NCBI GenBank assembly: GCA_964406945.1
Contig: CAYOTO010000001.1
Coordinates: 101,502-165,501, forward strand
Length of the DNA stretch: 64,000 nt
Source of the DNA: an uncultured Pirellulales bacterium
Lineage (GTDB): Bacteria > Planctomycetota > Phycisphaerae > Sedimentisphaerales > Anaerobacaceae
Direction of reading: 5' to 3'
The notes under the pieces are model-generated. The model searched no databases. It saw nothing but the letters and a program-made list of their open reading frames with translations, and was not told the origin of the DNA. Position numbers and translations under genes: made by a program. Below are positions 37,098 to 64,000 of this stretch, in pieces; within the stretch, counting starts at the first letter, position 1, and each line of letters opens with the position of its first letter.

Positions 37098-37370
37098 TTA
37101 ATGGGGGTTTGAATCGGGTTTATTTGCCGGCGGATCGGGCCACTTGCCGAGCGGGCAGGCCTCCTCTTCCACCCTGGCCTTGGCCGGTATGTAGCACCCG
37201 CAGAGCGTGCACCAGAGGCTGCGGCGCTCCCACTTCTGCTGATCCTTGCGGTCGCACTGCCGACAGATCCTCAGACGATCATCAGTCGCCGGGCACTTGC
37301 GACCGATCGCCAGCCGCGTGAAGCCCTTGGCGATCCTGCCAGCCTGGCGAATTTTCTTGCAACAGCTCAC
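37098..37370 (-). CDS. small Cys-rich zinc-ribbon-like protein
   Basis: GTG 37370 lies 2 nt after the stop of the upstream gene. VSCCKKIRQ...RICRQCDRKDQQKWERRSLWCTLCGCYIPAKARVEEEACPLGKW is a CxxC...CxxCGC...CPxGKW pattern recurring in small phage/glycosyltransferase-associated proteins. Confidence 0.5.
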   Translation of the reverse strand: MSCCKKIRQAGRIAKGFTRLAIGRKCPATDDRLRICRQCDRKDQQKWERRSLWCTLCGCYIPAKARVEEEACPLGKWPDPPANKPDSNPH

Positions 37371-37374
37371 AGCA

Positions 37375-38100
37375 TCACTCCACAAAAACAGGTTCGATTG
37401 CAACTGTACCAGGTACGCATAATTGACCGCTGAATGTGTATGACCCTCCGCTGCTTTTTTGCAACTGCGAACAATCACAATCAGACACAGTTTCGTCTGG
37501 TATCGGCCAGCCTTCTTCGTCCAGACATCGTGTTGCCACGCTTGGAGTCGTCGTTGCAATGTTAAAGCACTCGCTTGTGACGTCAACGGTCCAATGGCTC
37601 GTAGCTTCGACAATATCAAAATCTTGTCGCTCACTATTCGAATCAAGCCCAGACAATCGAACTGTAATTCGAGCTTTGCCATCCGTATAGATATCAACCC
37701 ATAAATAAAGCTGGTCCAATGAAATCGTCATCAACTCTTCGTCACCACTGCAATCGGCGGGCAACAAGCTGCTGTTGAAAAAAATCTCAACCGATCCAAA
37801 ACTATCGGATACAGTTAGTTCCCACGTACATGGGCTTACATAAGGCAGGCGGTATTTTCCGTTGATCGTAGCCGCCACGCCGTTTGTTTTCATCGCATAG
37901 TAATTGTTGCCGATTATGATGGACTGCCTGCATCCAGCGCAATCAGTCCAGCTTGCCAAAGTCAAGTCCAGCCATTTAGGGGTAATGAACGAATTGTCTG
38001 CGCACAGTTGGCACTCGCGTTCTACCCGCAATATCCGCCCGGTGCTGGCCCTGCGGATTATCCTGCCCGTACTTGGATTTCGCTGGATTCTGCCGGTCAT
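37375..38100 (-). CDS. Cys-rich phage protein of unknown function (AT-richer gene)
   Basis: ATG 38100 overlaps the upstream stop (ATGA). N-terminal triple repeat TGRIQRNPSTGRIIRRASTGRILR. At least 12 Cys, including a DCDC motif. Confidence 0.6.
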   Translation of the reverse strand: MTGRIQRNPSTGRIIRRASTGRILRVERECQLCADNSFITPKWLDLTLASWTDCAGCRQSIIIGNNYYAMKTNGVAATINGKYRLPYVSPCTWELTVSDSFGSVEIFFNSSLLPADCSGDEELMTISLDQLYLWVDIYTDGKARITVRLSGLDSNSERQDFDIVEATSHWTVDVTSECFNIATTTPSVATRCLDEEGWPIPDETVSDCDCSQLQKSSGGSYTFSGQLCVPGTVAIEPVFVE

Positions 38101-38747
38101 GTTGCGCTGTAACAATCACAGTCTTCGTCGCCGTCGAACTGGCTGACGAAGAAGTATCGATCGCTCTCCATCTGCTTGGCAAACAGGATATCTCCGATGA
38201 CTATGCGGGGCGTGGCCGTGTCGAGGTTGCTGAAGCTGCCGCTGTTGCAGAACAGCGCGTATACATTGAAGGCGCTGCCCACCTCATCCCAGGACGAGCT
38301 GCCCGTGTTCCACGTAACTTTCATGCACGAAATATATGAGCGGGCCGCCGCGCTCTCTTTGGCCTTGACCGCAATCACTTCTTCGCTCTGCTGGCCGGCC
38401 GCTGCGAATATCTCATCGATATACCACTTGCCGTCCCGGGCCTTGAAGACCGGAATAATATCGTATTGCTTGATCAGAGGGCTGGCCTCATCGAGCGCCG
38501 TCAGGCTGGATGCATTCGCCATCAGGCCTTCGGCGTCGAACGCATCGCCGGTCGTATTGCCGTCTGAATCGAGCAGCTTTACGCTGATGAATTCGTCAGC
38601 CTGCGCATCCTCCTGGGCCTCCGCCAGGTAGCGGACGCCCGCAAGTCTGATAGCCCGGCCGGGCTGGATGACCTGTGGCGATGCGGGTCGTTCGCGGATG
38701 GCTGCATCGATCACGTGTGATACCCTGGTGCGGATACTGCTCAGCAT
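38097..38747 (-). CDS. phage protein of unknown function
   Basis: ATG 38747 overlaps the LamG-gene stop by 1 nt. Good coding character. C-terminus DGDEDCDCYSAT. Confidence 0.6.
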   Translation of the reverse strand: MLSSIRTRVSHVIDAAIRERPASPQVIQPGRAIRLAGVRYLAEAQEDAQADEFISVKLLDSDGNTTGDAFDAEGLMANASSLTALDEASPLIKQYDIIPVFKARDGKWYIDEIFAAAGQQSEEVIAVKAKESAAARSYISCMKVTWNTGSSSWDEVGSAFNVYALFCNSGSFSNLDTATPRIVIGDILFAKQMESDRYFFVSQFDGDEDCDCYSAT

Positions 38748-40258
38748 CAGTCCACCTCCTCCCACGCCCCTGAGACGCGGGATATCGCCGGCGGACCGGT
38801 CGCATCGATCACCTCGGACACCTCGTCTGCCGTCTGCGTCTCACCCCCGGCCGAGCTGTACGGCCGCACGCAGAACTTATACGGTTGCCCCCCGGTCAGA
38901 GCCGCCGAAGTCCACTCGTACTCGCCCGCGCCGCTAAGCACCGCTCGCACCGTACCGTCCGGATTGTCGTAGTCGAAGCCGCTGCCGGAATCTATATATA
39001 TACGGAACTCGGACGGAGCTGCGTCGTGGTCAATCGCCACGTAGGCCCACCGCAGCCGAACCTTGCCGCCGGCCACCGGCTCGATACTAAGCTGCTGCAC
39101 CGCGTTCGGCTCAAGCGGCCGCATTGCACCATCGGACCCGATCCGCACCAGGCAGCTCGGCCCGTCGGCCGACTCCAGGCCGCAGTCGCTCATACTCCGC
39201 CGCGTGTACTTCCAGATTGTCCCTGGCGGCAGGTTCTGCTGGGAGATCGCCGCGCTGCCCTCATCACCGGCGACGACCGCCTGCACACTCTCGTAGTCCA
39301 CATTGGCATCCTGGCCGCGATAGATCGCATCGCAGCCGGCCGTCCGCGTCCAGAACCATCCCTGCGTCAGTGCCGTGCCCAGCTTGAAAGCATTGCTGGT
39401 GCAGCCGTTATACAGCGCCTCCTTGAGCCATCGCTTGGTTATGCTCAGCGAGCCGCCCGCCCATGGGCTTCGCGGCCGGTACCGGACCGTCCCCGACAGT
39501 GCCCCGCCTGCCGCAACCATCCCGCTGATGCTCACGTAGCACGGCCCAGAAAGCGCAGTCGGCGAAAAAGGCCGTTGGCAGACCGCATACGGGTCGCGAG
39601 CCAGCCATCGCACCTCGGCAGCGATAAGCGGTCGACTCCAGATCATCGCGTGCGCAATCTTTGCCTCGGGACTGTACTGGGCCGGGTGGCCCAGCCGGAG
39701 CTGGTAATCGGAGCCTTGGTAAATAGCTCCCACCTGCCCGGATCCCTGAAATATCGCGTCAACGTAGACCGATAGCGTATCGCCGTCATAGACACCGGTC
39801 ACGTTATACCACCGGCCGAGCTCTATAGTCGGCCCGGGAATTGTAAGTTGCGTCCCATCCGATCGCCAATAGATCGCGACGATCTTATCGTGCCAGCCCG
39901 CCCCCATGAGCGACCAGCTGTGCCCACCTGAGTAAATGTAATCCAGTAGGTAACAAGTGGTGCTGCTGCTCGGCAGTGCGTAGAACATCACCCGGATCGT
40001 CCAGGCGTGCGGCCCAAGGTATGTGGCGTCTTCGCCGTCGAGATTCGCGTAGCCGCTGGTGCCGTCGAATTCGATGCCATAGCCCTCCGGCCCGGCTTTC
40101 CAATCATAACCACGCTGCAGCTGCCCCTCGGTCCGGCCGGCCAGGTCAAATAGCATATTGCCGCCGCCCTCGTTGAGCAGCCAGCACCGGTACAATCCCC
40201 GCCGCAGCGGGTGATTGACTTCGAGTTGTGCGCCCCTGATGGGTTTAAGCAGTGGCAC
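38747..40258 (-). CDS. LamG/concanavalin-like lectin domain protein with C-terminal FN3-like region (putative fibre/receptor-binding or decoration protein)
   Basis: WLLNEGGGNMLFDLAG...FDGTSGYANL...WTIRVMFY...LGRWYNVTGVYDGDTLSVYVDA...RLG...AHAMIWSRPL is the typical Laminin_G_3 layout. The C-terminal ~100 aa are beta-rich (RLRWAY...FRIYID). Confidence 0.6.
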   Translation of the reverse strand: MPLLKPIRGAQLEVNHPLRRGLYRCWLLNEGGGNMLFDLAGRTEGQLQRGYDWKAGPEGYGIEFDGTSGYANLDGEDATYLGPHAWTIRVMFYALPSSSTTCYLLDYIYSGGHSWSLMGAGWHDKIVAIYWRSDGTQLTIPGPTIELGRWYNVTGVYDGDTLSVYVDAIFQGSGQVGAIYQGSDYQLRLGHPAQYSPEAKIAHAMIWSRPLIAAEVRWLARDPYAVCQRPFSPTALSGPCYVSISGMVAAGGALSGTVRYRPRSPWAGGSLSITKRWLKEALYNGCTSNAFKLGTALTQGWFWTRTAGCDAIYRGQDANVDYESVQAVVAGDEGSAAISQQNLPPGTIWKYTRRSMSDCGLESADGPSCLVRIGSDGAMRPLEPNAVQQLSIEPVAGGKVRLRWAYVAIDHDAAPSEFRIYIDSGSGFDYDNPDGTVRAVLSGAGEYEWTSAALTGGQPYKFCVRPYSSAGGETQTADEVSEVIDATGPPAISRVSGAWEEVD

Positions 40259-40580
40259 TTAAGGTCACTCCGTAGAATCGGTATTCCATCGCGTACCGCG
40301 TATTAAACGCCTCTTTCCTGTTGTGCCAATCCTCTCGCAGCTTCGCGACAACGTCGGCCTGGCTCTGCTGCCCCGTCACCGTAATCGTCGCCGACATCTC
40401 CACCAGCGTCCCGGCAGCCAGGGCCTCGGCCTCGGCCTGGTCGATAGCGCTTAGCTCGCTGGTCGGCGTCGGCACGACGCCCTCTTTCGGACTATCCACC
40501 GGGATATGGTATACGAGCCTGGCCCGGCCTCTGGCCTCCCCTCCCACTGCCTCCATCTTGCCCACGTGTATATCTGCCAT
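40245..40580 (-). CDS. phage protein of unknown function
   Basis: 111-aa ORF tightly packed in the operon; no recognisable motif. Confidence 0.5.
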   Translation of the reverse strand: MADIHVGKMEAVGGEARGRARLVYHIPVDSPKEGVVPTPTSELSAIDQAEAEALAAGTLVEMSATITVTGQQSQADVVAKLREDWHNRKEAFNTRYAMEYRFYGVTLSATA

Positions 40581-40590
40581 CGTGTTGCTC

Positions 40591-40965
40591 CTAAACCGAC
40601 TGGTACCGCCAGGCCCTCGACTTGGCGGTTACCGTGATTGTATCAGTACTGCCGCTGCGCTTGCAGTACAGTCTGAATTGCGCCACATCGCGGATCGTAA
40701 AGCTGATCTGATTCGGGTCGTTGTCGTTCTCCAGCACCACCGCCTGCAGCGGCGTATCGTCCCAGTTGCTGCCGTCTATCGACGCCTGCACCTGTATTTC
40801 AAGATCGTCCGTCGGGCTGGCCGGAAAGTCCGCATCGACCGTAACGTGCGCCCCTTCGTAGCCGTCCGTCGCCAGGTCCACCGCCGACGAATACGACCCG
40901 GTTGTAACGCTGACCGCGTTCATAATTGTCGCTTCGGACGCCCAGTCCTTCTTTATTGTCGCCAT
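40591..40965 (-). CDS. phage beta-rich module protein (paralogous to 45022..45474 and to the N-terminus of 43225..44175)
   Basis: TDGYEGAHVTVDADFPASPTDDLEIQVQASIDGSNWDD...FRLYCKRSGSTDTITVTAKS. Confidence 0.5.
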   Translation of the reverse strand: MATIKKDWASEATIMNAVSVTTGSYSSAVDLATDGYEGAHVTVDADFPASPTDDLEIQVQASIDGSNWDDTPLQAVVLENDNDPNQISFTIRDVAQFRLYCKRSGSTDTITVTAKSRAWRYQSV

Positions 40966-40975
40966 CTCTAAGCTC

Positions 40976-41365
40976 CTAACTTACAGTCAATTGCAGATCG
41001 CCGGCCTCGAACCTGGGCGCATCGCCCGTGCGGATCTCCTGCGAGCTGTTAAGCGCACCGCTGGCCAGCATATTGCCGCCGCTGACCGCGTCGAACAGCG
41101 CAACATGCGAAACAGTCCCCCAGGAGGCCGTCGCCTCGGGGAAGGTAATGTTGGCGGCATTAGCGATCGTACCGCCCGAAGCCGCAGCCCACTTACCCGC
41201 CGTCGCTGTGCGGGCATAACCGTTGCCGGCGGGCTCGGCGATGGTCGAGCCATCCTCGCCCGGATCCGCCGTCGACAATGCCAGGTAAACCGCAGGCAGA
41301 GCCATCCCCGTCTTGCCGGCGAGCAGTTCCGCAATCTTATTCTCGGTATAATTGCTAAGGCTCAT
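40976..41365 (-). CDS. conserved phage protein (N-Y-x-E-N...GNGYAR...FPEAT-SWG family), function unknown
   Basis: MSLSNYTENKIAELL...PAGNGYARTA...ANITFPEATASWGTVSHVALFDA...GNML. I recognise this pattern from many phage structural modules but cannot name the family. Confidence 0.5.
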   Translation of the reverse strand: MSLSNYTENKIAELLAGKTGMALPAVYLALSTADPGEDGSTIAEPAGNGYARTATAGKWAAASGGTIANAANITFPEATASWGTVSHVALFDAVSGGNMLASGALNSSQEIRTGDAPRFEAGDLQLTVS

Positions 41366-41366
41366 A

Positions 41367-41822
41367 TCAGCTCCGGTCCCGTGTGATGCTGCTCTCGCCG
41401 TCGGTCGGCGTCAGCGTGAGCATCAAAGTCGCTCCATCGTCGTCGTAATGCTGGATAGTCCCCGTCGATTTATTTTGCACGGCTTTGTTAATCAGGACTT
41501 TATCGGCCGTGAGAATGGCCGTGCCCGTCCAAAAGACGATTCGCTGGCCGATCCACGGATCTCCGTCCGCCGGACTTCCGCCGCCCTGATAGAACGTCTG
41601 GACTGTGTACCGGCCCGTACTTATATTGGTGTCGAAGTCGCCGACGAACAAGGATCCTCCCGTCTGAGCCAGCGAAATTGCATAATCGGCCGCCGCCCTG
41701 CCACTGGTGCCCCAATTCTCGAACACCTGGCCGGTGGGCCACCACACCTGGCCGGCCCTGTTACGGATCACAGCGTACACCTGATTGCCCCACGTGTGGG
41801 TCTCGTGAATCTCGTTACTCAC
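41367..41822 (-). CDS. phage protein of unknown function
   Basis: 151-aa ORF, 1-nt gap to its neighbours. Confidence 0.5.
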   Translation of the reverse strand: MSNEIHETHTWGNQVYAVIRNRAGQVWWPTGQVFENWGTSGRAAADYAISLAQTGGSLFVGDFDTNISTGRYTVQTFYQGGGSPADGDPWIGQRIVFWTGTAILTADKVLINKAVQNKSTGTIQHYDDDGATLMLTLTPTDGESSITRDRS

Positions 41823-41824
41823 TG

Positions 41825-42595
41825 TTAGACCTCCTCAGTCCAGGTTCCGTTCTTGGCAATCGTTACCCAGTCGCCGTTTGAGTCGGCAACCAGCTTCAGG
41901 CAGGCCCCGATGGTGCTGCAGGCCTTGTACTTGTCGGCGGTCTGGCCGCTGTCGTCGCGGATCGTCGCGGTGCCGGGGTCGACCCGCAGCTCCTGGGCGG
42001 CCTGGACGGCGAAGGTGTAATTGTCGCCGGCCGCAGGCGAGGCCGGCAGTGTCAAGGTAATCGCCCCGGTCGCCCCCAGATTGGTGAAGACCTTGCCGCA
42101 ATCGGCGGCCGCCACACTGTAGTTCGAGGTCTTCGCCTCCAGGTAGATCCGCTCGCTGTTGTACGCCAGCGCCCACTTTCCGCGAAGGTCCGTGATCGAG
42201 GTGATCGTCCCACTGCTGTTGACCACCACTTCAGCCAGCTTGAGGTGCTCGGTACTCGGCCAGCCGTTGGCGTCGATATCATAGCCGATCGTTCCGTCGG
42301 ATTTCATCCAGACGTAGGTCGTATCGTTGTCGGTCGGATCGATCGCACTGCCGGATGTGTACGTCTTGACAGTTCCGCGCCACACATAAGAGCCGCCGGC
42401 CACCTTGAAGGTAGTCGCCGTGGCCGGGTAAACCGCCAAAGCCCCCGCCCAGTCCTGGCGGTTATGAATCGCCCACAGCATCTGGAGGAACTGGGTATAG
42501 AAGTCGGAGTTGTTCTCCTCGATAGGCTCGATTCCGCGAGCCGAGAGGAACGTCTGTATATCGGCATCGCTGGGATACCCCTGCGTGAAGGACAT
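41825..42595 (-). CDS. phage structural protein of unknown function
   Basis: 256-aa beta-rich ORF. C-terminal VFTNLGATGAITLTLPASPAAGDNYTF motif as seen in phage fibre/appendage proteins. Confidence 0.5.
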   Translation of the reverse strand: MSFTQGYPSDADIQTFLSARGIEPIEENNSDFYTQFLQMLWAIHNRQDWAGALAVYPATATTFKVAGGSYVWRGTVKTYTSGSAIDPTDNDTTYVWMKSDGTIGYDIDANGWPSTEHLKLAEVVVNSSGTITSITDLRGKWALAYNSERIYLEAKTSNYSVAAADCGKVFTNLGATGAITLTLPASPAAGDNYTFAVQAAQELRVDPGTATIRDDSGQTADKYKACSTIGACLKLVADSNGDWVTIAKNGTWTEEV

Positions 42596-42596
42596 A

Positions 42597-42860
42597 TCAG
42601 GTCTCCTGCATCGGCGACATGACCAGGTCGCCTATTATAATTCGCATCTTCAGTTTACGCGCCAGCACCACGAGCTGAGCCAGTGTCGGCAACGCATCGC
42701 GGTCGACCGGCCATCCTGCGGGCATCTCGAAGCCCAGATCGAGCTTATCCCACCGGTAAGCCCCGATACCCAGCTTGTCCATTCTCGCGGCGATCTGCTG
42801 ATCCAGCCGGAGCCTGGCTTGTATGCTCATATCGATTGTCAGCATCTCGACGGCACTCAT
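42597..42860 (-). CDS. small phage protein of unknown function
   Basis: ATG 42860 overlaps the upstream TAA by 1 nt. Only the C-terminal 87 aa of ORF 42597..43025 are used. Confidence 0.45.
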   Translation of the reverse strand: MSAVEMLTIDMSIQARLRLDQQIAARMDKLGIGAYRWDKLDLGFEMPAGWPVDRDALPTLAQLVVLARKLKMRIIIGDLVMSPMQET

Positions 42861-43228
42861 TATCCGCCCCCCATGCACGGCCTGGGCGCAAAGAGCACGC
42901 CTTGGCCGCTGGCGTCGGCCACCATGGCCTTCTTTCGTTTGTGAGCCTGACCGATCCGCCGCTTTGCTTCGCTGATCCTGCCCTCGCAGTAAGCCTTCCA
43001 CGCCGCCGGATCGTGCGTCAGACAATTGCCGTCCGGGTTAAGCCCGACGATCCAGTGGCCGCCCTCCCGCAGCCTGGTGAGTATCTCGCGAACGTGTCGC
43101 CGTTTGGTCTCCCGGCAGCCGCCCAGACCGAGCTTCTCGGCAAGCTCGATGGCTGTCATGGGCCCATCGGCCTGCTGCAGCAGCGTCAGGCAGGCAGCAA
43201 GCTCTTCACGTGTTACGGTCGGCTTCAT
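42860..43228 (-). CDS. winged-helix/HTH-like small protein inside the structural operon
   Basis: ATG 43228 overlaps the connector stop (ATGA). MKPTVTREELAACLTLLQQADGPMTAIELAEKLGLGGCRETKRRHVREILTRLREGGHWIV is a wHTH-like layout. Confidence 0.5.
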   Translation of the reverse strand: MKPTVTREELAACLTLLQQADGPMTAIELAEKLGLGGCRETKRRHVREILTRLREGGHWIVGLNPDGNCLTHDPAAWKAYCEGRISEAKRRIGQAHKRKKAMVADASGQGVLFAPRPCMGGG

Positions 43229-44175
43229 AGCTGCGGCCTCCTGTAGTGGTCCAGTATCTCCCGGACATTCTTCAAGAGTGCTATGGGTTCGTGCTTGGAT
43301 ATCTGAGCGCCCTGGATGCCGACGGAGGACAGGCCGATGTCGTCGCGGCGTTTGAACAGGAACGAGGCCTGCTCGATGGCTGCCTCGCGGAGATCCGCCG
43401 GCAGTGCGTACTCGCCGGATCCGGGGCTCTGGCCCGCCGCTGCGTAGCCGCCGCGATAGACCACCTGCACCGAGTCCGGCTGGGAGGCCCAGTTCAAATA
43501 CATCCGCAGGAGCACTCCGGAGCGGCCGTTTGCCACTATGCGGTAGCCGCTGTCGGCGGTCAGGGCGTCGGCATTGTCGAAGTCGTAGGTGATCGATTCC
43601 TTGATGGAAGTGATGGCGATGATCGGATAGCGCTCGAGCTGCAGGCGGTTGCCCCGGCCGGTATAGTACTCGGTTACGGCGGCGGCCGGTGCGATCAGCG
43701 TGCGGCGGGTCTGCGAATTGAAGATCTCCTCGATGCCGGTAATCAGTCGCGTAAGGGCCGCATCGTAATCGGTGACTGTTATTCCCAGCCGGTCCTTGAC
43801 GTCGGCCAGCGTGCAGATCCTCGCGGTAGAAGAATCGGCCAGCACAATCGCCGTGGCCGTGGTGTCCTCGCCGGCGGCGCACAGGGCCCGGACGCGGATC
43901 CAGTTTGCCGTCTCGGTGAAGGTTTCCTGGGCGGCGGCGCCCGATGCTATCGGAACGGCGGGCACCCCGCCGTGCTGATCGAGGACGGGCGTTACACCGG
44001 CATCAGCGGACGTGTCGATCTGGACATCGGTGATGTCGTTGCCCGAACCGCCGCCGGCGTTGGCGATGACGATCGTGAAGCCTGAAAGCCCGTCGATGCA
44101 GGTCCAGTCCAGCAGTGTGGTCAGATTCTCATCGACGGCTATAGCGGAGCTTGTTTTTGCGACTAATTGCGACAT
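43225..44175 (-). CDS. head-tail connector (gp6-like) with N-terminal beta-module extension
   Basis: LADVKDRLGITVTDYDAALTRLITGIEEIFNSQTRRTLI...YPIIAITSIKE matches the gp6-like head-tail connector pattern. The N-terminal ~110 aa are an extra domain. Confidence 0.6.
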   Translation of the reverse strand: MSQLVAKTSSAIAVDENLTTLLDWTCIDGLSGFTIVIANAGGGSGNDITDVQIDTSADAGVTPVLDQHGGVPAVPIASGAAAQETFTETANWIRVRALCAAGEDTTATAIVLADSSTARICTLADVKDRLGITVTDYDAALTRLITGIEEIFNSQTRRTLIAPAAAVTEYYTGRGNRLQLERYPIIAITSIKESITYDFDNADALTADSGYRIVANGRSGVLLRMYLNWASQPDSVQVVYRGGYAAAGQSPGSGEYALPADLREAAIEQASFLFKRRDDIGLSSVGIQGAQISKHEPIALLKNVREILDHYRRPQL

Positions 44176-44183
44176 TCGTTAGT

Positions 44184-44242
44184 CCGGAGTTCGGAGTTTG
44201 GAGTTCGTTTTAACCACGGATTGGCACGGATTTACACGGATG
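44184..44242. repeat. (GGAGTTy)x3 tandem repeat plus half CACGGATT array
   Basis: CCGGAGTTCGGAGTTTGGAGTTCG, then AACCACGGATTGGCACGGATTTACACGGATG. Confidence 0.8.
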
Positions 44243-44268
44243 CCGGTCGTGGTTATTTGGTGACGTAT

Positions 44269-44928
44269 TTACTTCGAGCGTTTCTTTTTCTTACCTTTTC
44301 CGGGCTGTACTGCCTGTCGTTTGGGCTTTCGGTCATCTTTTGTTTTGGTTTGTCCGTCTTTTTTGGGGTCTTCGGAGTCGCTGTCATTGCCGGTCTCCTG
44401 CGGTTCGAGGGCTTCGATTTCGAGTTCTTCGCCGAGCTGTTCGGCGAGCTGCCGGGCCTTGCGGGCATGCTCTTCGAAGTCCAGGCGGGCTATGTCTCTG
44501 GTGCCCCGGGCCACCTGATAGCGGCCGAGGGCAATGTCATGCAAAGCTGTTGCGCGGATGCGGACGACTTTGGTGCTGTCGGCGTCGGCTTTGGCCGCTC
44601 CGCGTGCTTCGTTGTCCGCAGCGATTGCATTGTCCACGGCGGTCTGGCTTTCGGCGGCAGCGGGCGCCAATTCCTGCAGTTGGTCGCGTTTCTGCTCGTA
44701 AAGTCTGCGACAGTGGCTGACGATGGCCAGTTCGGCTTCGAGCCGCCTGCGCATCTCGGCGCGTCGGGCGGCCTTTTCGTCCCTGTGGGCGTCGTGGGGA
44801 GGCGGGACCTGTTTGAAGTACTTCTTCTTGCCGATCCGCTTTAGCTGGTCTTCGGGCAGGTCGTGGATTGTGTCGGCGGCGAAGAAGCCTTCGGGCCCGG
44901 CGTAGGTGCGTTTGAATTGTACGTACAT
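44269..44928 (-). CDS. coiled-coil phage protein with highly basic C-terminal tail
   Basis: Charged helical core. C-terminus KDDRKPKRQAVQPGKGKKKKRSK. Confidence 0.5.
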   Translation of the reverse strand: MYVQFKRTYAGPEGFFAADTIHDLPEDQLKRIGKKKYFKQVPPPHDAHRDEKAARRAEMRRRLEAELAIVSHCRRLYEQKRDQLQELAPAAAESQTAVDNAIAADNEARGAAKADADSTKVVRIRATALHDIALGRYQVARGTRDIARLDFEEHARKARQLAEQLGEELEIEALEPQETGNDSDSEDPKKDGQTKTKDDRKPKRQAVQPGKGKKKKRSK

Positions 44929-45021
44929 GGCGGTTCCTTTCGTATCGTGTCAATATTGAATTTTGAAGAAGGTCCGGCCGGGGCGTCCGTGCCGCCGACC
45001 GGACACAATACGCTTAAACTG

Positions 45022-54774: not shown

Positions 54775-54789
54775 TTTCTAAATCTTTGT

Positions 54790-56299: not shown

Positions 56300-58221
56300 G
56301 TGACCAGTTTGTGGACATTAAGACGGCGGCGGGGAGGCTGGGGGTTACGGAGAGGCACTTGAGACGTTTATGCGTGTCAGGCCGAGTCCGGGGCGCTTGC
56401 AAAAACGGACGCCGCTGGCTGGTACCCGCAAGCTACGATCAGCGATTGACTGATCCGGATGCAATTCAAAAGACCGATAATACTGATGTACTCAGTAGTA
56501 TTTCCGCCGAAAAACGCGATGAGGCGATGCAGCGACTGGGCACTGTTCAACAATTCGAGAGGTTTGCCGCGAGCTTCGACGGCAAGATCAGCGATGCACT
56601 GAGCATGTTCGCCGGCATCCAGGGGGTCGGCGAGCGGACGCTGTGGCGGTGGCGGAGTCAGTACCGCAAACGCGGCATCGCGGGGCTGGTCGACGGCAGA
56701 GGCGGCGGGGGATCTGGTGCCACTATCAGCGAGGAGGCGTTCGAGCTGTTCAAGAGCATGTATCTGACGCAGCAACAGCTCAGTGTGAAGTTGTGCTGGC
56801 AGAATGTGCAATTCGTGAACAGCCGAGACGAACGCGGATGGGACGTGCCGAGCCTGCGGACGATGCAGCAGATGGTCAACGAACGGATCCCGCTGGCGGT
56901 GCGTGTGCTGCACCGGGAGGGGCTTGCGGCCTATGAGGCCAAGTGTGCGCCGTACGTGCAGACGGATCCGGACAGCGTCGAGCCGGGCCAGGTCTGGGTC
57001 GGCGATCATCATCAGTTCAACTGCTGGGTTCGATATCGCGGACGCTGGGTAAGGCCGTGGCTTACCGCCTGGCTTGATATGCGGAGCCGCAAGCTGGTGG
57101 GCTGGCATATATCGGCCTCACCGAATCAAACTACCATTATGCTCGCTATGAAGAGGGGGTGTGAGCGATACGGGCCGCCGTCCGCGTGCAAGATCGACAA
57201 CGGCAAGGACTATGACTCGGAGATGTGGACCGGCACCACCAAGGCCAGGCGCCGCGCCCTGGGCAAGGGCTACCTGGATGAGCAGATGGTCGCCGGGATC
57301 TATGCGATGATGGATATTGCGGTGACGTTCTCGATTCCGTACCATCCGCAGTCCAAGAGTATCGAGCGGTTCTTCGATACCGCCGACCAGCAGTTCACAA
57401 AGACTATGCGGCTGTATTGCGGCAAGGATTCGGCCAGGCGGCCGGACGAAGTAAATGAGCTGCTCAAACGCGAATCGGAAATCCAGCGGGCTTATACGCT
57501 GGATACCTTCGCCGAGGCGTTCGCAGAGTACGCCAGGGTCTACGACAAGACGGCCCATACGGGCAGGGGCATGGACGGGCGGTCGCCGGATCAGGTGTTC
57601 GCCGGGCGGGGGACGCAGCGGGTCCTGGCCGACGGAGTGCTGGGTCTGCTGCTGCGAGTCTGGAGCGGCGAGCTTAAGGTCGGCAAGAACGGTGTGCGGT
57701 TCAAGGGCCTGTACTACGGCCAGTTCAACACCGAACTGCTGCTGGCTCAGGGCCGCAAGGTCCGACTGGCATACGATCCGGACGATCTGAGGCGTGTGCA
57801 CGTCTACGACTCGGCCACGCTCAAGCTGTTATGCATCGCCGAACAGAATCAGCTCGTGGCCTACGGCGAGCCGGTGGCCGAAGAGAACCTGCGTCAGGCC
57901 ATGAAAGCCAAGGGCAGGGCGCTCAAGACTGTGCGGGAATATCGGGACGCCGGCCGGATCCGCAATACCGATCTGACCAGTCTGACCATTGAGGCGATGG
58001 CCGAGGCCCAGGATCCACAGCCCACTCCGGCCAGGCCCCAAAGGCTGCAGCCGGTGCGGACGGCTATGGATGACCAGGTCGCCGAGCATGAACGCCAGCA
58101 GATCATAAAACACGTGAAGCGAGCCAGCGGCGCAGAGCAGACGACCGAAGTGTTGGATTTTGACTTTTCGAAACTGCGAAGAACTGAACCGGAGAAGCTG
58201 ACGCTAAAATTCAATGAGTGA
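56296..58221 (+). CDS. DDE transposase, Mu A-like
   Basis: N-terminal HTH (VDIKTAAGRLGVTERHLRRLC), rve-type DDE core (VWVGDHHQFN; KIDNGKDYDS; SKSIERFF), Mu-transposase C-terminal barrel (NGVRFKGLYYGQ...KVRLAYDPDDLRRVHVYD). Confidence 0.9.
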   Translation: MSDQFVDIKTAAGRLGVTERHLRRLCVSGRVRGACKNGRRWLVPASYDQRLTDPDAIQKTDNTDVLSSISAEKRDEAMQRLGTVQQFERFAASFDGKISDALSMFAGIQGVGERTLWRWRSQYRKRGIAGLVDGRGGGGSGATISEEAFELFKSMYLTQQQLSVKLCWQNVQFVNSRDERGWDVPSLRTMQQMVNERIPLAVRVLHREGLAAYEAKCAPYVQTDPDSVEPGQVWVGDHHQFNCWVRYRGRWVRPWLTAWLDMRSRKLVGWHISASPNQTTIMLAMKRGCERYGPPSACKIDNGKDYDSEMWTGTTKARRRALGKGYLDEQMVAGIYAMMDIAVTFSIPYHPQSKSIERFFDTADQQFTKTMRLYCGKDSARRPDEVNELLKRESEIQRAYTLDTFAEAFAEYARVYDKTAHTGRGMDGRSPDQVFAGRGTQRVLADGVLGLLLRVWSGELKVGKNGVRFKGLYYGQFNTELLLAQGRKVRLAYDPDDLRRVHVYDSATLKLLCIAEQNQLVAYGEPVAEENLRQAMKAKGRALKTVREYRDAGRIRNTDLTSLTIEAMAEAQDPQPTPARPQRLQPVRTAMDDQVAEHERQQIIKHVKRASGAEQTTEVLDFDFSKLRRTEPEKLTLKFNE

Positions 58222-59329
58222 CCTCAACAAAGCCATCGAGCAGGATGCCCGGTGGATAGAGGAAAGGATTCCCTCGAACATGGATACAGCCGAGATCAAG
58301 CAAGCGCGGCAGAGAGCCAGGGACTTCATAGCTGAACGGCGACTGACTCAGGCACAGGTCGCCAAAAAGATAGGCGTCTCGACCGCCAGGCTTAATCAAT
58401 TCCTGGCCGGCAAATACCAGGGAGACGTACCGAAGATCGTGGTGACGGTCCTGCGATACATCGATTCGGTCAAACGCAAGGAGCGACACGGCAAGGCGGC
58501 CGATTCGATTCAGACTACTGTGGCTGAGCGGATTTATACGACTATCGTGCAGACCGAGGCCATGAGTGATCACGAGGGTAAGATCGGACTGATCTTCGGG
58601 GACGCCGGCCACGGCAAGAGCCATTGCCTGCGGGCTTATGCCAGGAGCAATCCCAACAGCGTGTACGTGGAGTTGGACGATACGATGACCTCGACCAGGA
58701 TCTTCGCGGAGATCGCGGCGGCGCTCAAGTACGACTCTTCGGGTTCGCTGGCCAATCTTACCCAGCGGCTTATTGAAAACCTGCAGAACCGGCAGATGAT
58801 CGTAATGCTCGACGAGGCGTCGAGTCTCACCGTCCGCCAGCTCAATCAGCTACGCCAGATTCTAGTGGTCAAAGCCAGGTGTCCGCTGATCCTGGCTGGC
58901 AATCGCTACCTGTGGGACACCATCATGCAGCCGACGGCCAGACGCGGCCACGAATCGCTCGATCAGTTCATAACCCGACTGATGGGCAAGCTCGACCTGG
59001 ACAAGGAGGCGGCCGACGACGACGGCGGACTCTATACCGAAGATGATGTTCTCAAGTTGTACCAGTACGGCGGCATTCGTCTGACATCGGATGCCGTCCG
59101 GGCGTTGCGGAAGATATGCCAGACGCCGTATTCAGGCAGGCTGCGGACCTGCAGTCATATTATCGCAGCTTTGCATATTGCACCGCAGATCGTCGAGGCC
59201 GGGCAGATCACGGCCGAGAACATCAGAAGCGCCATCCAATCACTCGGGCTGCCGGTCAATGTTCGGCTGCCGATGGCGACTATTAACAAGCAGGCGGCCG
59301 AACGGAGGTCAATCGCGGCCGCCGGCTAA
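58214..59329 (+). CDS. MuB-like AAA+ transposition ATPase with N-terminal Xre-type HTH
   Basis: RRLTQAQVAKKIGVSTARLNQFLAGKYQGD. Walker A GDAGHGKS. Walker B MIVMLDEA. Confidence 0.85.
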   Translation: MSDLNKAIEQDARWIEERIPSNMDTAEIKQARQRARDFIAERRLTQAQVAKKIGVSTARLNQFLAGKYQGDVPKIVVTVLRYIDSVKRKERHGKAADSIQTTVAERIYTTIVQTEAMSDHEGKIGLIFGDAGHGKSHCLRAYARSNPNSVYVELDDTMTSTRIFAEIAAALKYDSSGSLANLTQRLIENLQNRQMIVMLDEASSLTVRQLNQLRQILVVKARCPLILAGNRYLWDTIMQPTARRGHESLDQFITRLMGKLDLDKEAADDDGGLYTEDDVLKLYQYGGIRLTSDAVRALRKICQTPYSGRLRTCSHIIAALHIAPQIVEAGQITAENIRSAIQSLGLPVNVRLPMATINKQAAERRSIAAAG

Positions 59330-59342
59330 ACAGCAGTTAAAC

Positions 59343-59876
59343 ATGAAACAAGGGCTGAATAACAACCAGATAAAGCTGGTTCAAACGGCTGTTCGCAAGG
59401 CCGGGCTGCGGGGTCCGGGTAATAGCGACGGTCGCTACCGGCTGCTGCTGTCTCAGTACCGTCAGCCGAACGGCAAGCCGGTAACGAGCTGCAAGCAGCT
59501 CAACCGCAGCCAGATGGAAGACCTGCTGGCGATCTGCGAGGCCTACGGCTGGCGGATGCCGGGCAAGCCGCCGAATCACTACCGGCGGAAGGTCGAGATC
59601 TTCAACGAGGGCACCGGCAGTTACGCCCAGGAGACGGCGATCAGGCACCTGGCCGGCGATCTGGGCTGGGATGATCAGCAGCTCAAGGGTTTTGTCAGGC
59701 GAATGACCAAGGGCCGCACCGATGCGCTCGAGCAGACCGGCAGCCGCCAGGCTTACGCAATTATCGAGGCGCTCAAGGCCATGGTCGGCCGAGAGCGGGG
59801 CACACAATACGGTAACCTAAAAGAAGTCAGGGATGATATGGAGGCTAAGGATGGCCAAGCGGGTAAAGTCACGTGA
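59343..59876 (+). CDS. gemA: GemA / Mu gp16-like protein (DUF1018)
   Basis: QIKLVQTAVRKAGL...YRLLLSQY...SCKQLNRSQMEDLLAICEAYGW, second half AIRHLAGDLGWDDQQLKGFVRRM. Confidence 0.7.
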   Translation: MKQGLNNNQIKLVQTAVRKAGLRGPGNSDGRYRLLLSQYRQPNGKPVTSCKQLNRSQMEDLLAICEAYGWRMPGKPPNHYRRKVEIFNEGTGSYAQETAIRHLAGDLGWDDQQLKGFVRRMTKGRTDALEQTGSRQAYAIIEALKAMVGRERGTQYGNLKEVRDDMEAKDGQAGKVT

Positions 59877-60372
59877 GCAATTGATACCGGTTGAAAACTG
59901 GAAGCATGCGGATGTCCTTGTTAAGAGGATGGGGGACCTGCAGCAGCAGATTGATGGCGCTCAGGCGGCGGCGAAAGAAAAGGCCAACAAGGCCAAAGCT
60001 GAACTCGCCGACAAGGTGGAGGGGCCGAACGCGGAAATTAAGCGGATCACCAAGAGCCTGGAGTCCTTCTGCGCAGCCCGCAAGAAAGAGTTCGGCGACC
60101 GCAGGAGCCGCAAGCTGAACTTCGGGATTGTGGGCTGGAGACGCAGCACTTCGATTAGCTGCAAGAAGACAACGGCCGACAGGATCCGCGAGGTCTTCTC
60201 GAAGGCCAAGGCCGCGACGCTCCTGCACGTCAAGACCACGCCCGACAAGGAAGCCCTGGCCAAGCTGGATGACGAGCAGCTTGTGGCCGTCGACGCCAAA
60301 CGCAGAGTTAAGAATGAATTCTACGTAGAGCCCGGCCAGACCGAGGCCGCCGACTATGGAGAGTCGGATTAA
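59851..60372 (+). CDS. gam: Mu Gam-like host-nuclease inhibitor
   Basis: GGAGG RBS plus ATG 59851. Coiled-coil N-terminus, then RKLNFGIVGWRRSTSISCKK...LLHVKTTPDKEAL is the Phage_Mu_Gam pattern. Confidence 0.75.
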   Translation: MAKRVKSREQLIPVENWKHADVLVKRMGDLQQQIDGAQAAAKEKANKAKAELADKVEGPNAEIKRITKSLESFCAARKKEFGDRRSRKLNFGIVGWRRSTSISCKKTTADRIREVFSKAKAATLLHVKTTPDKEALAKLDDEQLVAVDAKRRVKNEFYVEPGQTEAADYGESD

Positions 60373-60968
60373 TGCAGATCGAATTCACAATGGGACCGGA
60401 TTTCCCCCGCACCGCCCGGCAGTTGAGCGAGGCGGGCAAGGCCCTGCTGGCCGGCTGCAGCGAAGGGCTGCGCGAGGGCGTCGAGTACGCCGCAGACCAC
60501 GTCGCCGAGAACTACCTCTCGGACCAGGCCCTCAGGAGCCGCAGCGGTTCACTGCGAAGGGCCATGGGCGGCTGGCTGGCCGGACCCCTTCACGGCGTGG
60601 TGGGCGTCCGTCCCGGCGCAGCCGTCGACGCCTACAAGTGGCTGCTCGGCGACGAACAGAAGACGATTACCCCCCAGCGGTCGAAGTTCCTCACCATCCC
60701 GATCGGCGAGAACCTGCGGCCCTCCGGAGTCCCACAGTACAGCAGCCCCCGCCAGGTGCCCGACGGCTTCTTCGTCCGCAGCAAGGGCCGCCTGCTGTTC
60801 GGCTACAAGCGCGGCAAGAAGGGCAAGTTCCGCGCCCTGTTCGTTTTGGTAAAGAGCGTATTCGTCCAGGGCACCGGGGCACTTTACGACGGCGTCGAAG
60901 AGACCCTCGACGACATCGCCGAATCGATGGAAGAGAAAGGACGCAAAGCGATAGACCACAATGCCTGA
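60372..60968 (+). CDS. putative virion-morphogenesis/neck protein
   Basis: The start overlaps the gam stop (TAATG). Weak resemblance to Mu G / HK97 gp10-type head-completion proteins (SRSGSLRRAM...KFLTIPIGENLRPSG...LFGYKRG). Confidence 0.35.
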   Translation: MQIEFTMGPDFPRTARQLSEAGKALLAGCSEGLREGVEYAADHVAENYLSDQALRSRSGSLRRAMGGWLAGPLHGVVGVRPGAAVDAYKWLLGDEQKTITPQRSKFLTIPIGENLRPSGVPQYSSPRQVPDGFFVRSKGRLLFGYKRGKKGKFRALFVLVKSVFVQGTGALYDGVEETLDDIAESMEEKGRKAIDHNA

Positions 60969-61437
60969 TTCCGGAATAACATCCCAGCTCGAAGCATGGT
61001 TCGCCACACAGCTCGCGCAGATAACCGACAGCGGCCGCACGGTCTTCCGCACGGCCGAAGTCTGGAAGCACCAGGTCGCAGCCACATCCGGCGGCATGGA
61101 GGCCTTCGACCGCTACGCCCCGTTCGCTTTCGTCAGTGTCAGCGGCACAACTCCGGCCCGCGAGGGCGACTACGACCTGCGAGAGATCTTTGAGACCACC
61201 ATACTGATCGGCCAGTCGGCGTCGAGCCCCGGCGTGGCCCGTTTCGGATCCACCCGGACCCACGGCACCGGCAGCCTCCGCGACCTGGTCGTCGCCGCGT
61301 TCGACCGGCAAGTCCCCGAGTCATCCCTGGCCTGCGACGAGATCTATCTGACCGACGAAGGCGAGGTCCTGGACGCACCGAAGGCCCACGCCATCGAGCT
61401 TGTATTCCAGACCAGCAGAATGAGGGCACCGGCATGA
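60961..61437 (+). CDS. Mu gp37-like protein (DUF1834), tail-completion candidate
   Basis: ITSQLEAWFATQLAQI...RYAPFAFVSVSG...ETTILIGQSA...GTGSLRDLVVAAF follows the DUF1834 layout. Confidence 0.5.
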   Translation: MPDSGITSQLEAWFATQLAQITDSGRTVFRTAEVWKHQVAATSGGMEAFDRYAPFAFVSVSGTTPAREGDYDLREIFETTILIGQSASSPGVARFGSTRTHGTGSLRDLVVAAFDRQVPESSLACDEIYLTDEGEVLDAPKAHAIELVFQTSRMRAPA

Positions 61438-61454
61438 AGTGCAAAGTAAAAAGA

Positions 61455-61537
61455 GCCACGGATGCACACGGATTAACACGGAAACTCACAGGCATTGCGG
61501 TTCTAAATCCGTGCCAATCCGGGTCAATCCGTGGTTA
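61455..61537. repeat. CACGGATT-array hairpin element
   Basis: GCCACGGATGCACACGGATTAACACGGAAA...TAAATCCGTGCCAATCCGGGTCAATCCGTGGTTAA, followed by (CACGAAA)x2. Confidence 0.85.
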
Positions 61538-61572
61538 ACACGAAACACGAAACTCAATCGGAGATTTGAAAA

Positions 61573-62478
61573 ATGGCCAACAAAAGAATCTACTCACCGC
61601 AGGCCGTAACGATCAACGGCGTCGACGCCGGCGGCGCGATGCAGCTCCGCATCCAGGCCGGTTACGACGGCAAGCTTCAGAGCGCCCCGGACGGCCTGGG
61701 CGTTCCGATCAAGGACAAGCACTCGGGCTTCTGCCGGGGCACGCTTATCAGCCAGGACTGGCCCCACATCGTGGACCTTCTGACCGGGACCGTCGGCACT
61801 CTGGTCTGTTATGAACGCGAGAGCGGCGCGGCCACGTACACCAAGCACACCATCACCAACCCGGTGATCCACCGCGTGGCCCTGCAGTTCAACAAGGGCC
61901 AGTATGCAACGCTGGCCGCCGATTTCGAATGCCGGGCGGCCCTGACAACAACCGACTTTACCCAGATGTGGACCGCCGAGGCGGGCCAGACCGCCCCGAC
62001 CTATGTCAGCGCCGCTCGCGGCGGCTGGCGGATCGAATCGGCCGTCTTCAGCAGCCTCGCGACCGAGAAAATCATCAACCACGTAGACCGCTTCACCTTC
62101 GAGATCGTAATGGACCTGCTCAAAGACAGCGCCGACCTGGACCTGGCCTACACGGCGGTCGACGCAGTCGAAGACCGCATGCAGGCCTCGGGCTCCCTCG
62201 GCTCCCAGGACTTCGAAGTCGCAAGCGGCTATGCCAAGATGCTCTCGCTGATCGCGGCCTCCCGGGACAACCTCGTACTGGAGATCAGCCAGTCCGGCTC
62301 GGCGGCCAATAAGGTTGTAACGATCGCCGGCGTCGACTTCCAGGACGCCGAATCCGATTCCAACGCCGAAGGCGGCTACAGCGGCCTCGGTGTAAACTTC
62401 GACGTCACCAACGACGCAACAACGCCGCTTAGCCTGTCCGGCGACAACAAGATCATCACCATAGCCGACAGCGCATAA
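61573..62478 (+). CDS. putative major tail (tube) protein
   Basis: Position immediately upstream of the tape measure, beta-rich 301 aa. The intergenic hairpin element upstream is typical of highly expressed structural genes. Confidence 0.45.
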   Translation: MANKRIYSPQAVTINGVDAGGAMQLRIQAGYDGKLQSAPDGLGVPIKDKHSGFCRGTLISQDWPHIVDLLTGTVGTLVCYERESGAATYTKHTITNPVIHRVALQFNKGQYATLAADFECRAALTTTDFTQMWTAEAGQTAPTYVSAARGGWRIESAVFSSLATEKIINHVDRFTFEIVMDLLKDSADLDLAYTAVDAVEDRMQASGSLGSQDFEVASGYAKMLSLIAASRDNLVLEISQSGSAANKVVTIAGVDFQDAESDSNAEGGYSGLGVNFDVTNDATTPLSLSGDNKIITIADSA

Positions 62479-62527
62479 GCCGCCTGTTCGCCGGTTTTTT
62501 AATTTTTAATTTTTACTTGGGACCGCA

Positions 62528-64000
62528 GTGACCAAAGACGTAAACATCCACATAAAGACCCGGGGCGCCGACAAGAGCCGCCGCGATCTCGACAAGGTCG
62601 GCAACTCCGCTAAGGGCGTCGGCGACAAGACCCGGAAGGGCTCAAAACAGGCCGGCGACGCCGTAGAGCAGAGCACCGGCAAGCTCAAGGGTCTCGGCGG
62701 AGTCCTGGGCACGCTCAAGAGCCAGGTCATGGGCTTCGTGGGCGCATGGCTGGGCTTCTCCGGCGTGCAGCGGATCCTGGATTACGTCATACGCAGGCTG
62801 GAGACCATCAAGCGGCTGCAGGCCGAGATCCACGACCGTACGGTCGAGGCCTCTCAGATCGGCCAGGCCCTGGAATTCCAGACCGGCACCCTCGGCCGCC
62901 AGCAGTTCTGGAGCCGCCAGGCCCTGGCCCTGCAGCAGGCCGGCGGCCTGGAAAGTCCGCAGACCGCCCAGCAGATGCTGGTCTCGATGGACATAGCCTT
63001 CGCCGACCAGGGCGGCATAAAGAACCGGGCCGTCCGCGACATCGCCGGCAAGCTCGCCCCCTTCGTCGGCGCAGCCCAACTGGGCCCGGCCGAGGTCGCC
63101 AAACTCTTCGAGTTCGCCGGCACCGCAGGCGTAGCACCCACGGCCACAGCCTACGAGGACTACTTCGCCAAGCTCACCGCCGGCTATACATCGGCCAAGG
63201 CCACCGACTTCGGCCGATTCATGGTCGGCCTCCAAAAAGGCGGCACCGCCTACATGTCAGCAGGCGGCACACTGGAGCAGGCAATCAGCGCCTTCGGTTC
63301 GGCCCGATCGGTAATGCCGAACGAGGAGCTGGCCGCCACGCTCATCGAGCAGGTGGCCCGCCTGTCGTCCGGCGCATACGCAAAGCCCAGGGCTGCGATG
63401 GAACGGGCCCTCGGCGTCGACTGGGGCTCGCTCAATATGGACCAGCGGATGGAGTCGCTGCTGAAGTACGTCCGTCAGATCCCCGAATCCCAGCGCGGCA
63501 GCCTGCTGGCCGAGCAGGGCTTTCCCGTAGAGCTTACCACTCAGATCGGCAAGATGGTCAGCCCCGAAGCCAGCAGGGCCATGACCGCCACCCGACAGGC
63601 GGTGGAATCGGCGGCCGGTGCATCGGTTCGCGCCGCAAGCCAGGCCTATACCGACTCGGTCCTGGGCCGCCAGCGCCAGACCGCAGCCCGGGCGGCCGCG
63701 ACACGGACAGCCGCCGGCCCGGACTTCGCCGACTGGCAGAACCGCATCAAGCAAGCCCGCGCCGAGTTCGAGGTCCTCCAGGCCAAGGGCGAGGATACGG
63801 ACGTCTGGGACAAGCACGAGCCCTATGTAATGGCTTTTGATCAGCTCTATCGCGACGTCGTCGCATTCAAGAAGTCCCTTCCCGATGACGATCCCCGCCG
63901 CGCCGAGGCCGACAACCTGCGTGGGGCAATATTGGCCGCCCTGGCCCGGCGCAGGGAGACGGTAGCCGGCCTGCTGACCCCCGCCGCCGGCGGCGCCGCA
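62528..64000 (+). CDS. tail tape measure protein (N-terminal part; continues beyond the window)
   Basis: GTG 62528. Frame 2 is open to base 64000 (not in the ORF track because there is no stop). Helical Ala/Gln-rich sequence with TP901-type TMP-core-like stretch (LAPFVGAAQLGPAEVAKLFEFAGTAGV...MSAGGTLEQAISAFGSARSV). Confidence 0.7.
   Translation, partial: MTKDVNIHIKTRGADKSRRDLDKVGNSAKGVGDKTRKGSKQAGDAVEQSTGKLKGLGGVLGTLKSQVMGFVGAWLGFSGVQRILDYVIRRLETIKRLQAEIHDRTVEASQIGQALEFQTGTLGRQQFWSRQALALQQAGGLESPQTAQQMLVSMDIAFADQGGIKNRAVRDIAGKLAPFVGAAQLGPAEVAKLFEFAGTAGVAPTATAYEDYFAKLTAGYTSAKATDFGRFMVGLQKGGTAYMSAGGTLEQAISAFGSARSVMPNEELAATLIEQVARLSSGAYAKPRAAMERALGVDWGSLNMDQRMESLLKYVRQIPESQRGSLLAEQGFPVELTTQIGKMVSPEASRAMTATRQAVESAAGASVRAASQAYTDSVLGRQRQTAARAAATRTAAGPDFADWQNRIKQARAEFEVLQAKGEDTDVWDKHEPYVMAFDQLYRDVVAFKKSLPDDDPRRAEADNLRGAILAALARRRETVAGLLTPAAGGAA

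Follow-up and report, generated by a model that had tools for sequence, protein, structure and literature searches.

A Mu-like siphovirus prophage of Planctomycetota with its virion genes divided between two divergent arms, probably by a central inversion

Introduction

Transposable phages in which the virion genes are divided between opposed arms of the genome have been described in two settings. In KS10, an active transposable phage of Burkholderia, the morphogenesis genes are described as split by the inversion of a block of ~17 kb (Goudie et al. 2008, PMC2628397). The text of a study of transposable prophages in Leptospira describes two groups, NN and TG2, with two opposed arms and virion genes split over both (Olo Ndela et al. 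2021, PMC8705779). Here we analyze a stretch of 64,000 nucleotides from contig CAYOTO010000001.1 of an uncultured planctomycete (assembly GCA_964406945.1), hereafter called the window, the right-hand part of which contains a Mu-like prophage with packaging and head genes on one strand and tail genes on the other. A first-pass annotation of this DNA had taken such an organization to be new for transposable phages, a claim that KS10 and, as far as their published text describes them, the Leptospira prophages do not allow. We consider it probable that the window holds a single prophage of ~30–33 kb, belonging to a Mu-like siphovirus family of Planctomycetota and rearranged by a central inversion.

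Relatives of the prophage and the layout of the family

Relatives were gathered by searching IMG/VR and JGI metagenomes with MuA, by scanning IMG/VR and GTDB genomes with a tube profile, and by looking up exact proteins, and the proteins of the window were placed on them by tblastn. About 125 related loci were obtained; the total of 130 fetched sequences also counts three annotated reference phages and the three Logan contigs that belong to the window. The relatives come mostly from metagenome-assembled genomes (MAGs) of Planctomycetota, namely Pirellulales, Sedimentisphaerales, and Phycisphaerae. When the window MuA is compared with deposited phages, the best matches reach 25–31% identity. 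The set gives a first description of a large Mu-like siphovirus family in Planctomycetota, covering its two-arm layout, the sequences of its termini, and a repeat cassette found between its genes.

All nine distinct MuA-recovered loci that reach far enough (L008, L010–L013, L083, and L085–L087) carry an arm of lysis genes, TerS, and TerL that diverges from MuA, MuB, GemA, and Gam, and because this is common to the MuA-recovered relatives, two divergent arms are the family norm. The genes that follow on each arm are equally regular. After the head-tail adaptor, and on its strand, come n198, n158, the tail tube, and the tape measure protein (TMP) in 54 of the 55 distinct n198 homologues, and Gam is followed by wH, u87, u256, and the LamG protein in nine of nine distinct wH homologues. 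In L096 the genes after Gam can be read as far as the terminus as wH, u87, u256, u151, LamG, u222, and u199, collinear with the block of genes that we call the U block in the window. As in B3, BcepMu, and KS10, genomes of the family are laid out as a central control region with divergent promoters and two arms running outward to Mu-type ends, a late arm that holds lysis, packaging, head, neck, tube, and TMP genes, and an early arm that holds MuA, MuB, GemA, Gam, a small winged-helix protein, and a LamG-rich block.

A probable inversion of the central segment

Against this background the window stands out in that the partners are swapped, the adaptor leading into wH and Gam into n198. The comparison of synteny across public genomes, which the first-pass annotation had put forward as a check, thus sets the window apart from relatives that keep the standard order. 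The swapped partners are exactly what inverting the segment from adaptor to Gam (~43.2–60.4 kb, ~17 kb) would give, and because that segment holds the divergence point, all genes still point outward. The same annotation had spoken of an inverted head module. A block is indeed inverted relative to the family, but it runs from adaptor to Gam, early region included, which amounts to an exchange of distal modules between the arms. In the proposed sequence of events, inversion of the adaptor-to-Gam segment would have brought the neck/tube/TMP module downstream of the transposition operon and the winged-helix/LamG block downstream of the head genes.

Both breakpoints lie exactly at start codons. On the minus strand the adaptor stop overlaps the start of wH122 (ATGA, 43225–43228), and on the plus strand the Gam stop abuts the start of n198 (TAATG, 60372). 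The C-terminus of the adaptor and the ATGA overlap are conserved in the window, L020, and L029, with n198 as the downstream gene in the relatives. The 30-odd genes of the window are intact and of full length when set against those of relatives. Since the junctions are placed so precisely and no gene is damaged, we infer selection of the rearranged genome as that of a working phage rather than a recent accident.

The opposite view, in which the inversion is real but recent and crippling and has left a dead remnant whose layout is without biological meaning, draws on the fact that this is the sole such case among more than 60 relatives, on the displacement of the putative regulator wH from the early operon, and on L024 and L034, which demonstrate that rearranged or truncated copies occur in the family. 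A crippling event would, however, have had to break precisely at gene boundaries, keep the start-codon coupling, and leave every one of these genes whole, and KS10 shows that an active phage can have such a split (PMC2628397). We therefore regard a dead remnant as unlikely and retain the reading of a prophage whose rearranged genome would still function.

Evidence for a single element and for the continuity of its junctions

Each of the novel junctions lies inside a separate Logan contig that matches the window at 100% identity. L017 covers 42234–52139 and spans the junction of adaptor and wH, L001 covers 54653–62481 and spans that of Gam and n198, and L130 covers 52111–54528 between them; all three derive from one run, SRR7048227. 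These contigs bear directly on the proposal that the MAG contig is a chimera in which pieces of related phages were joined in the wrong order. The metagenome-type assembly from which the window comes, the repeated cassettes found in both arms, and the ending of Logan contigs at the 52.1-kb cassette would all suit a chimera. Neither novel junction is at a repeat, however, and both are well inside de Bruijn contigs of an independent assembler (L001 and L017), with the gene starts exactly preserved at the junctions. The 124 nt between L130 and L001 contain no k-mer of 15 nt or longer that is repeated in the window. A chimeric origin is therefore highly improbable.

That the two arms belong to one phage, as the first-pass annotation had read them, is borne out by these contigs and by the lack of a Mu-type end in the center. 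Motifs of the family's terminal type are absent from 37–64 kb and occur in the window only at 36497–37010; ends at 54.3–55.8 kb, which had been named as the sign of two separate elements, were searched for, and no terminal motif was found there. Two mutually defective Mu-like elements lying head to head, one with lysis and head genes only and the other with early and tail genes only, would account for the complementary gene sets of the arms, for the break in the Logan contigs at 54529–54652, and for a tRNA gene in the center, and L024 offers a precedent for short remnants with early and tail genes. Yet lysis and early arms adjoin in the same manner in B3, BcepMu, and KS10 and in each MuA-recovered locus that extends to the lysis genes, terminal motifs of either type are lacking in 37–64 kb, no host gene lies in the center, and the tRNA is carried within the phage-only contig L001. 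It would also be very unlikely for two deletions to complement each other exactly and both to end at a start codon. We judge the existence of two elements to be extremely improbable and treat the locus below as one rearranged prophage.

Some points nevertheless weigh against the reading of a single, inverted, and functional prophage. The 124 nt at 54529–54652 have no independent contig, although they fall inside an intact open reading frame (ORF) of 101 amino acids (aa), and the Logan contigs represent a single run, which may also have supplied the reads behind the window assembly. Position 64000 cuts off the right end together with the remaining tail genes, which puts proof of completeness or of a target-site duplication out of reach. 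The closest relatives share ~60–69% amino-acid identity with any gene of the window, and because none is closer, the inversion cannot be dated and the arrangement is seen in one phage, not across a clade. In relatives, wH occupies the position of Mor, and if it were a late activator its place behind the head genes would be awkward for regulation. Finally, nothing indicates that the prophage is inducible.

Gene content of the two arms

The GC content of the window rises from ~0.53 to ~0.61 near 37–38 kb. Host genes lie to the left of this step, among them those for a GspE/PilB ATPase (34656–36422) and a GspF platform protein (33028–34338). From ~37.1 to 54.2 kb, all real genes are on the minus strand, and matches in Pfam, PHROG, and PDB confirm both the strand and the gene content first assigned to this leftward arm. 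Nearest the center is a lysis-like/membrane block (52149–54207; weak PHROG and Pfam matches) made up of l112, an Rz/lipoprotein-like gene, an ORF of 188–233 aa, and a Zn-ribbon membrane protein (53599–54207; weak Pfam/PHROG match), the order of which is kept in L008, L013, L083, and L085.

The head and packaging block that follows (43225–52078) was defined through Pfam, PHROG, and Logan gene calls. Pfam identifies a Mu-gp27 TerS (51515–52078), a TerL with Terminase_6N/6C (50226–51515), a fusion of portal and MuF of 793 aa (47848–50229), an S78 protease (46880–47698), and an HK97-type capsid protein (45558–46877); h150, h219, and the head-tail adaptor of 316 aa (43225–44175; PHROG 442, 2e-24) complete the block. 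Beyond the first breakpoint, the U block (37098–43228; Pfam, PDB, and synteny with L096) extends from wH122, a protein of 122 aa with a weak winged-helix-like match (42860–43228), through u87 (42597–42860), u256 (41825–42595), u151, a Gp80-like virion-associated protein (40976–41365; Pfam 1e-40, PDB 8jou 1e-11), two small ORFs, a LamG and fn3 protein recognized by Pfam (38747–40258), and u222, to a Cys-rich ORF (37098–37697).

The central control region (54469–55119, both strands) was read from the sequence and a terminator scan. It consists of a leftward gene of 101 aa (54469–54774, minus strand), a putative AT-rich divergent promoter region (54775–54916), and a rightward gene of 67 aa (54917–55119, plus strand) with a terminator-like hairpin after it. 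Its position is that of the repressor/ner region of B3, BcepMu, and KS10, an analogy that may indicate the roles of its genes. A tRNA-Met with anticodon CAT (55537–55612, plus strand; ARAGORN, Rfam 64 bits) sits in the early arm behind three terminator-like hairpins. Eight relatives lack it, which makes it a lineage-specific acquisition.

The early arm, from small zinc-ribbon genes through Gam (55669–60372; Pfam and Logan gene calls), and all genes beyond it are on the plus strand. The MuA-type DDE transposase (56263–58221) carries DDE_2 (PF02914, 1e-12), Mu-transpos_C (PF09299, 5e-11), HTH_Tnp_Mu_2 (PF09039, 7e-10), and rve domains. Directly 3' of it lies a MuB-like ATPase (58214–59329; AAA_22 1e-17, TniB 1e-5), followed by GemA (59343–59876) and Gam (59851–60372), both recognized by Pfam. 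With no gap after Gam come n198 (60372–60968), n158 (60961–61437), the tail tube of 301 aa (61573–62478), and TMP, a helical ORF that opens at 62528 and runs past the end of the window. The full-length TMP has 544 aa, and homologues in the same position carry PF10145. The order MuA, MuB, GemA, and Gam, then without a gap two further genes, tube, and tape measure, had been proposed from the letters alone and is upheld by Pfam, the fold of the tube, and the TMP homologues.

PHROG and Pfam gave nothing for the window proteins encoded by the central-region genes, n198, n158, tube, and TMP, and tblastn of the tube against deposited phages found nothing. The tube was recognized through its fold. An AlphaFold (AF2) model with a pLDDT of 82 matched the tubes of T5 (pb6), DT57C, and P74-26 in Foldseek at E ~1e-8, and the structures 8hqz, 8ed0, 7qg9, and 9iny are matched at E 1e-8 to 1e-7 with TMq 0.55–0.61. 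Some tube homologues weakly match PF18906. On the evidence of this model, the 301-aa protein is a siphovirus tail tube of the T5 pb6/P74-26 type, with a double tube-domain fold, encoded upstream of TMP. The predicted fold of n198 has no match in PDB, and its matches in BFVD are weak and point to HK97-gp10-like or minor tail proteins. The labels "neck-like" and "gp37-like" given earlier to the two genes before the tube consequently find no backing in PDB folds; where we use "neck" for n198, it denotes a putative role by analogy of position.

Termini and transposability

The element begins to the left of 37098, where the first-pass annotation had placed its boundary; the arm itself does reach 37.1 kb, but two candidate termini lie further out. 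The left terminal region on the U side (36965–37097, plus strand) reads 5'-TGTAGTGCGCGACGCAAAATGGCAGT and then a second AAATGGCAGT. The motif TGTAGTGCG-N5-CAAARTGGC has one exact copy in the window, at 36965, facing inward. The same motif directly abuts the host gspF coding sequence in L096 and, inverted, forms the tail-arm end of L030. Adjoining it on the outside is a non-coding, end-like stretch (36497–36964) with a second candidate 5'-TG terminus at 36497 (TGACATTTGGTTAATAAGACA) and an internal copy at 36667; the 20-mer GACATTTGGTTRATAAGACA is present at 36498 and 36667 against 0 expected copies, and GGGGATTGGCG occurs twice in 36423–36964. This last interval, a non-coding G-rich stretch of 540 bp between the start of the host gspE and the TGTAGTGCG terminus, represents the outer portion of a composite phage end or else what is left of an older element. 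Because L032 and L098/L099 have an extra 200–340 bp of end-like sequence beyond the CGCACTACA motif, the ends of the family may be composite. The left terminus lies at 36965 or 36497. A strict regular expression for the ends did not carry over to other contigs.

Relatives supply what can be said of the other end. L054 and L005 are 100% identical in two samples and then continue into different flanks after ...TTAGTTTTTACA-3', and the end of L005 reads ...TTTTTACA-3' and is accompanied by subterminal motifs in repeat. The tail-side end of relatives follows the start of the tube by 5–8.5 kb, and on this distance the right end is expected at ~66.8–70 kb, which would give an element of 30–33 kb. 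The stretch before it would hold the last part of TMP (to ~64162) and genes of ~130, ~700, and ~156 aa. The predicted end is ...CGCACTACA-3' or the inverse of TGACATTTGGTT..., and next to it a direct repeat of 5–6 bp would match the bases to the left of 36965 or 36497.

Among the features by which a Mu-like phage is recognized, the window has a DDE transposase with Mu domains, an adjacent MuB-like ATPase, a gp27-type TerS, TerL, portal, MuF, GemA, and Gam. On the left side, the TG termini at 36965 and 36497 are each accompanied by repeated sites, the right end being outside the window. Insertion at varied flanks is seen in the relatives, in L054/L005 and in L096, the prophage of which is inserted inside gspF. 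For the activators Mor and C there is no Pfam Mor match in the window, and wH122, at the position of Mor in relatives, weakly matches a winged helix. A missing Mor/C does not disqualify the phage, since the Leptospira prophages, as described in the text of that study, also lack Mor/C (PMC8705779).

Some side observations concern the sites of insertion. The host gspF/pilC at L096:13737–13863 is 81% identical (residues 161–202) to the window GspF, and the window prophage lies just upstream of the neighboring gspE/pilB (window region 33028–36964). Two related phages in one operon suggest a target preference or selection for hits in pilus/secretion operons. In L034 (9616–9662), which is from the same contig as L009, a Mu-type terminus of the early/U arm (TGTTAACTAACC...) lies 46 bp after the stop of a tail gene of 707 aa, with no host DNA between the two. 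The join looks like an insertion into or next to another copy, or the product of intramolecular transposition. A circular genome map, suggested by the joining of the two arm ends in L009/L034, was rejected in view of this terminus.

Repeat cassettes in both arms

Both arms hold the same array element, as had been noticed from the letters alone. The CACGGATT arrays account for 15 matches in the window against 2.5 expected, at 44207–44257, 47732–47892, 52107–52157, and 61432–61541, and a 110-nt inverted match of 85% identity links the two arms; a cassette of this length common to both fits a single genome. In each of the four intergenic cassettes, three AATCCGTG units at a spacing of 10 bp precede GGTTAAC and an A/C-rich leader, and 37–42 nt separate the end of the cassette from the start codon of the gene behind it, which is TerS, S78 protease, adaptor, or tube. 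On the minus strand, the triple AATCCGTG cassette at 44207–44257 ends 40 nt before the start codon of the adaptor, that at 52107–52157 ends 37 nt before the start codon of TerS (52078), and a double cassette with an inverted triple (47732–47892) lies upstream of the S78 protease gene; the cassette before the tube (61432–61541) is on the plus strand. Two cassettes have such an extra inverted triple and would form strong hairpins if transcribed, the prediction for 47732–47892 as RNA being -40 kcal/mol (z -5.3).

In IMG/VR, the array ATCCGTG-nn-AATCCGTG-nn-AATCCGTGGTTAA was located in 23 stretches (L106–L127) from at least 17 contigs, with up to seven copies per locus and at least eight in one contig, mostly in one orientation. 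It is found in a relative of standard layout, ahead of n198 and n158, and in contigs without detectable homology to the window phage; a similar pair of arrays is at L024:791–816. We favor a function of the cassettes as promoter elements or as sites bound by a shared regulator, and the array is probably a regulatory element shared by phages of Planctomycetota. To our knowledge, the triple array has not been described before, although no literature search was made for it.

For the window phage, the tube and TMP would be expressed from their own AATCCGTG-array cassette, and n198 and n158 might be reached by read-through from the early operon. A bolder proposal is that this is a viable phage whose tail module was captured by the early arm and tolerated since position-independent AATCCGTG cassettes (three repeats, 10-bp spacing, GGTTAA) drive the late blocks. 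We find this proposal rather doubtful; if true, the array may be a widely shared regulatory element that loosens the constraint on gene order. Two further ideas were set aside. That the cassettes are unique to the window phage and compensate for its rearrangement was ruled out by the IMG/VR scan, in which relatives of standard layout and unrelated phages alike carried them. Inversion through recombination between inverted cassettes was likewise rejected, as the breakpoints at 43228 and 60372 are ~1 kb from the nearest cassettes and the ancestral cassettes would be direct repeats.

Other arrangements within the family

Rearrangement is also seen elsewhere in the family. L024 is an element of ~12 kb in a Sedimentisphaerales chromosome, with MuA, MuB, GemA, Gam, wH, n158, tube, TMP, and a bona fide end, and because early and tail genes are joined in it, this linkage arose at least one more time in the family.

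In L026, L070, and L079, u256-like and LamG-like genes come after the tail genes, sharing their strand, rather than after Gam, and the LamG block has therefore moved between arms within the family. Such mobility is consistent with a role in tail fibers or host recognition.

In a set of small elements from IMG/VR and JGI contigs (L014, L015, L016, L092–L095, L098, and L099), the genes for S78 protease, capsid, and h150 run into MuA, MuB, and a gene of ~135 aa without a change of strand. In L098/L099 a terminus of the family type (…CGCACTACA) follows the ~135-aa gene, and L014 and L093 each show two diverged tandem copies that are 73–80% identical in nucleotides. These small elements could be transposable, capsid-encoding, and satellite-like.

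Comparison with known transposable phages

With Mu itself, the window phage shares the MuA-type transposase domains, the MuB-like ATPase, GemA, Gam, the gp27-type TerS, the fusion of portal and MuF, and a 5'-TG end. Mu differs in being collinear and in having a contractile tail, Mor/C, and an invertible G segment, none of which was found in the window phage. B3 had been counted among the collinear phages in the first reading of this DNA, but its annotation shows divergent arms. In B3 and BcepMu, as in the window family, an early arm (A, B, GemA, and further genes) and a late arm (repressor, lysis, TerS, TerL, and further genes) diverge from a central control region. These two phages keep all their virion genes on the late arm and have Mor as the last early gene, at the end of the genome, whereas the window phage has n198, n158, tube, and TMP on the early arm and a LamG/Gp80 block behind the head genes. 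The Leptospira groups are predicted prophages of myovirus type from an unrelated host phylum, a comparison that we draw from the text of that study and not from its maps (PMC8705779).

The closest likeness is to KS10. Its annotation (NC_011216) places repressor, lysis genes, TerS, TerL, portal, and MuF on a leftward arm, and transposase, B, GemA, and Mor, then protease, capsid, adaptor, sheath, and TMP on a rightward arm. As in the window, the packaging genes are thus on the lysis arm, and other virion genes directly follow the transposition/early genes on the opposite strand. The break in KS10 falls between MuF and protease, so that capsid and adaptor travel with the tail, whereas that of the window phage falls between adaptor and neck. 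KS10 is a myovirus of Proteobacteria with Mor; the window phage is a siphovirus with a double-domain tube and no Mor match, and no close homology between the two is detectable. Because the breakpoints differ and close homology is not detectable, the rearrangement in the window arose independently of that in KS10, and its layout adds one more independent example to a type of rearrangement already known. No new principle of genome organization in phages emerges from the prophage. What it adds is an independent case from an almost unstudied host phylum, with breakpoints unlike those of KS10 and a comparison set of more than 60 relatives of standard order, in which the strongly conserved order of head then tail could be broken by an inversion that spans the divergent control region.

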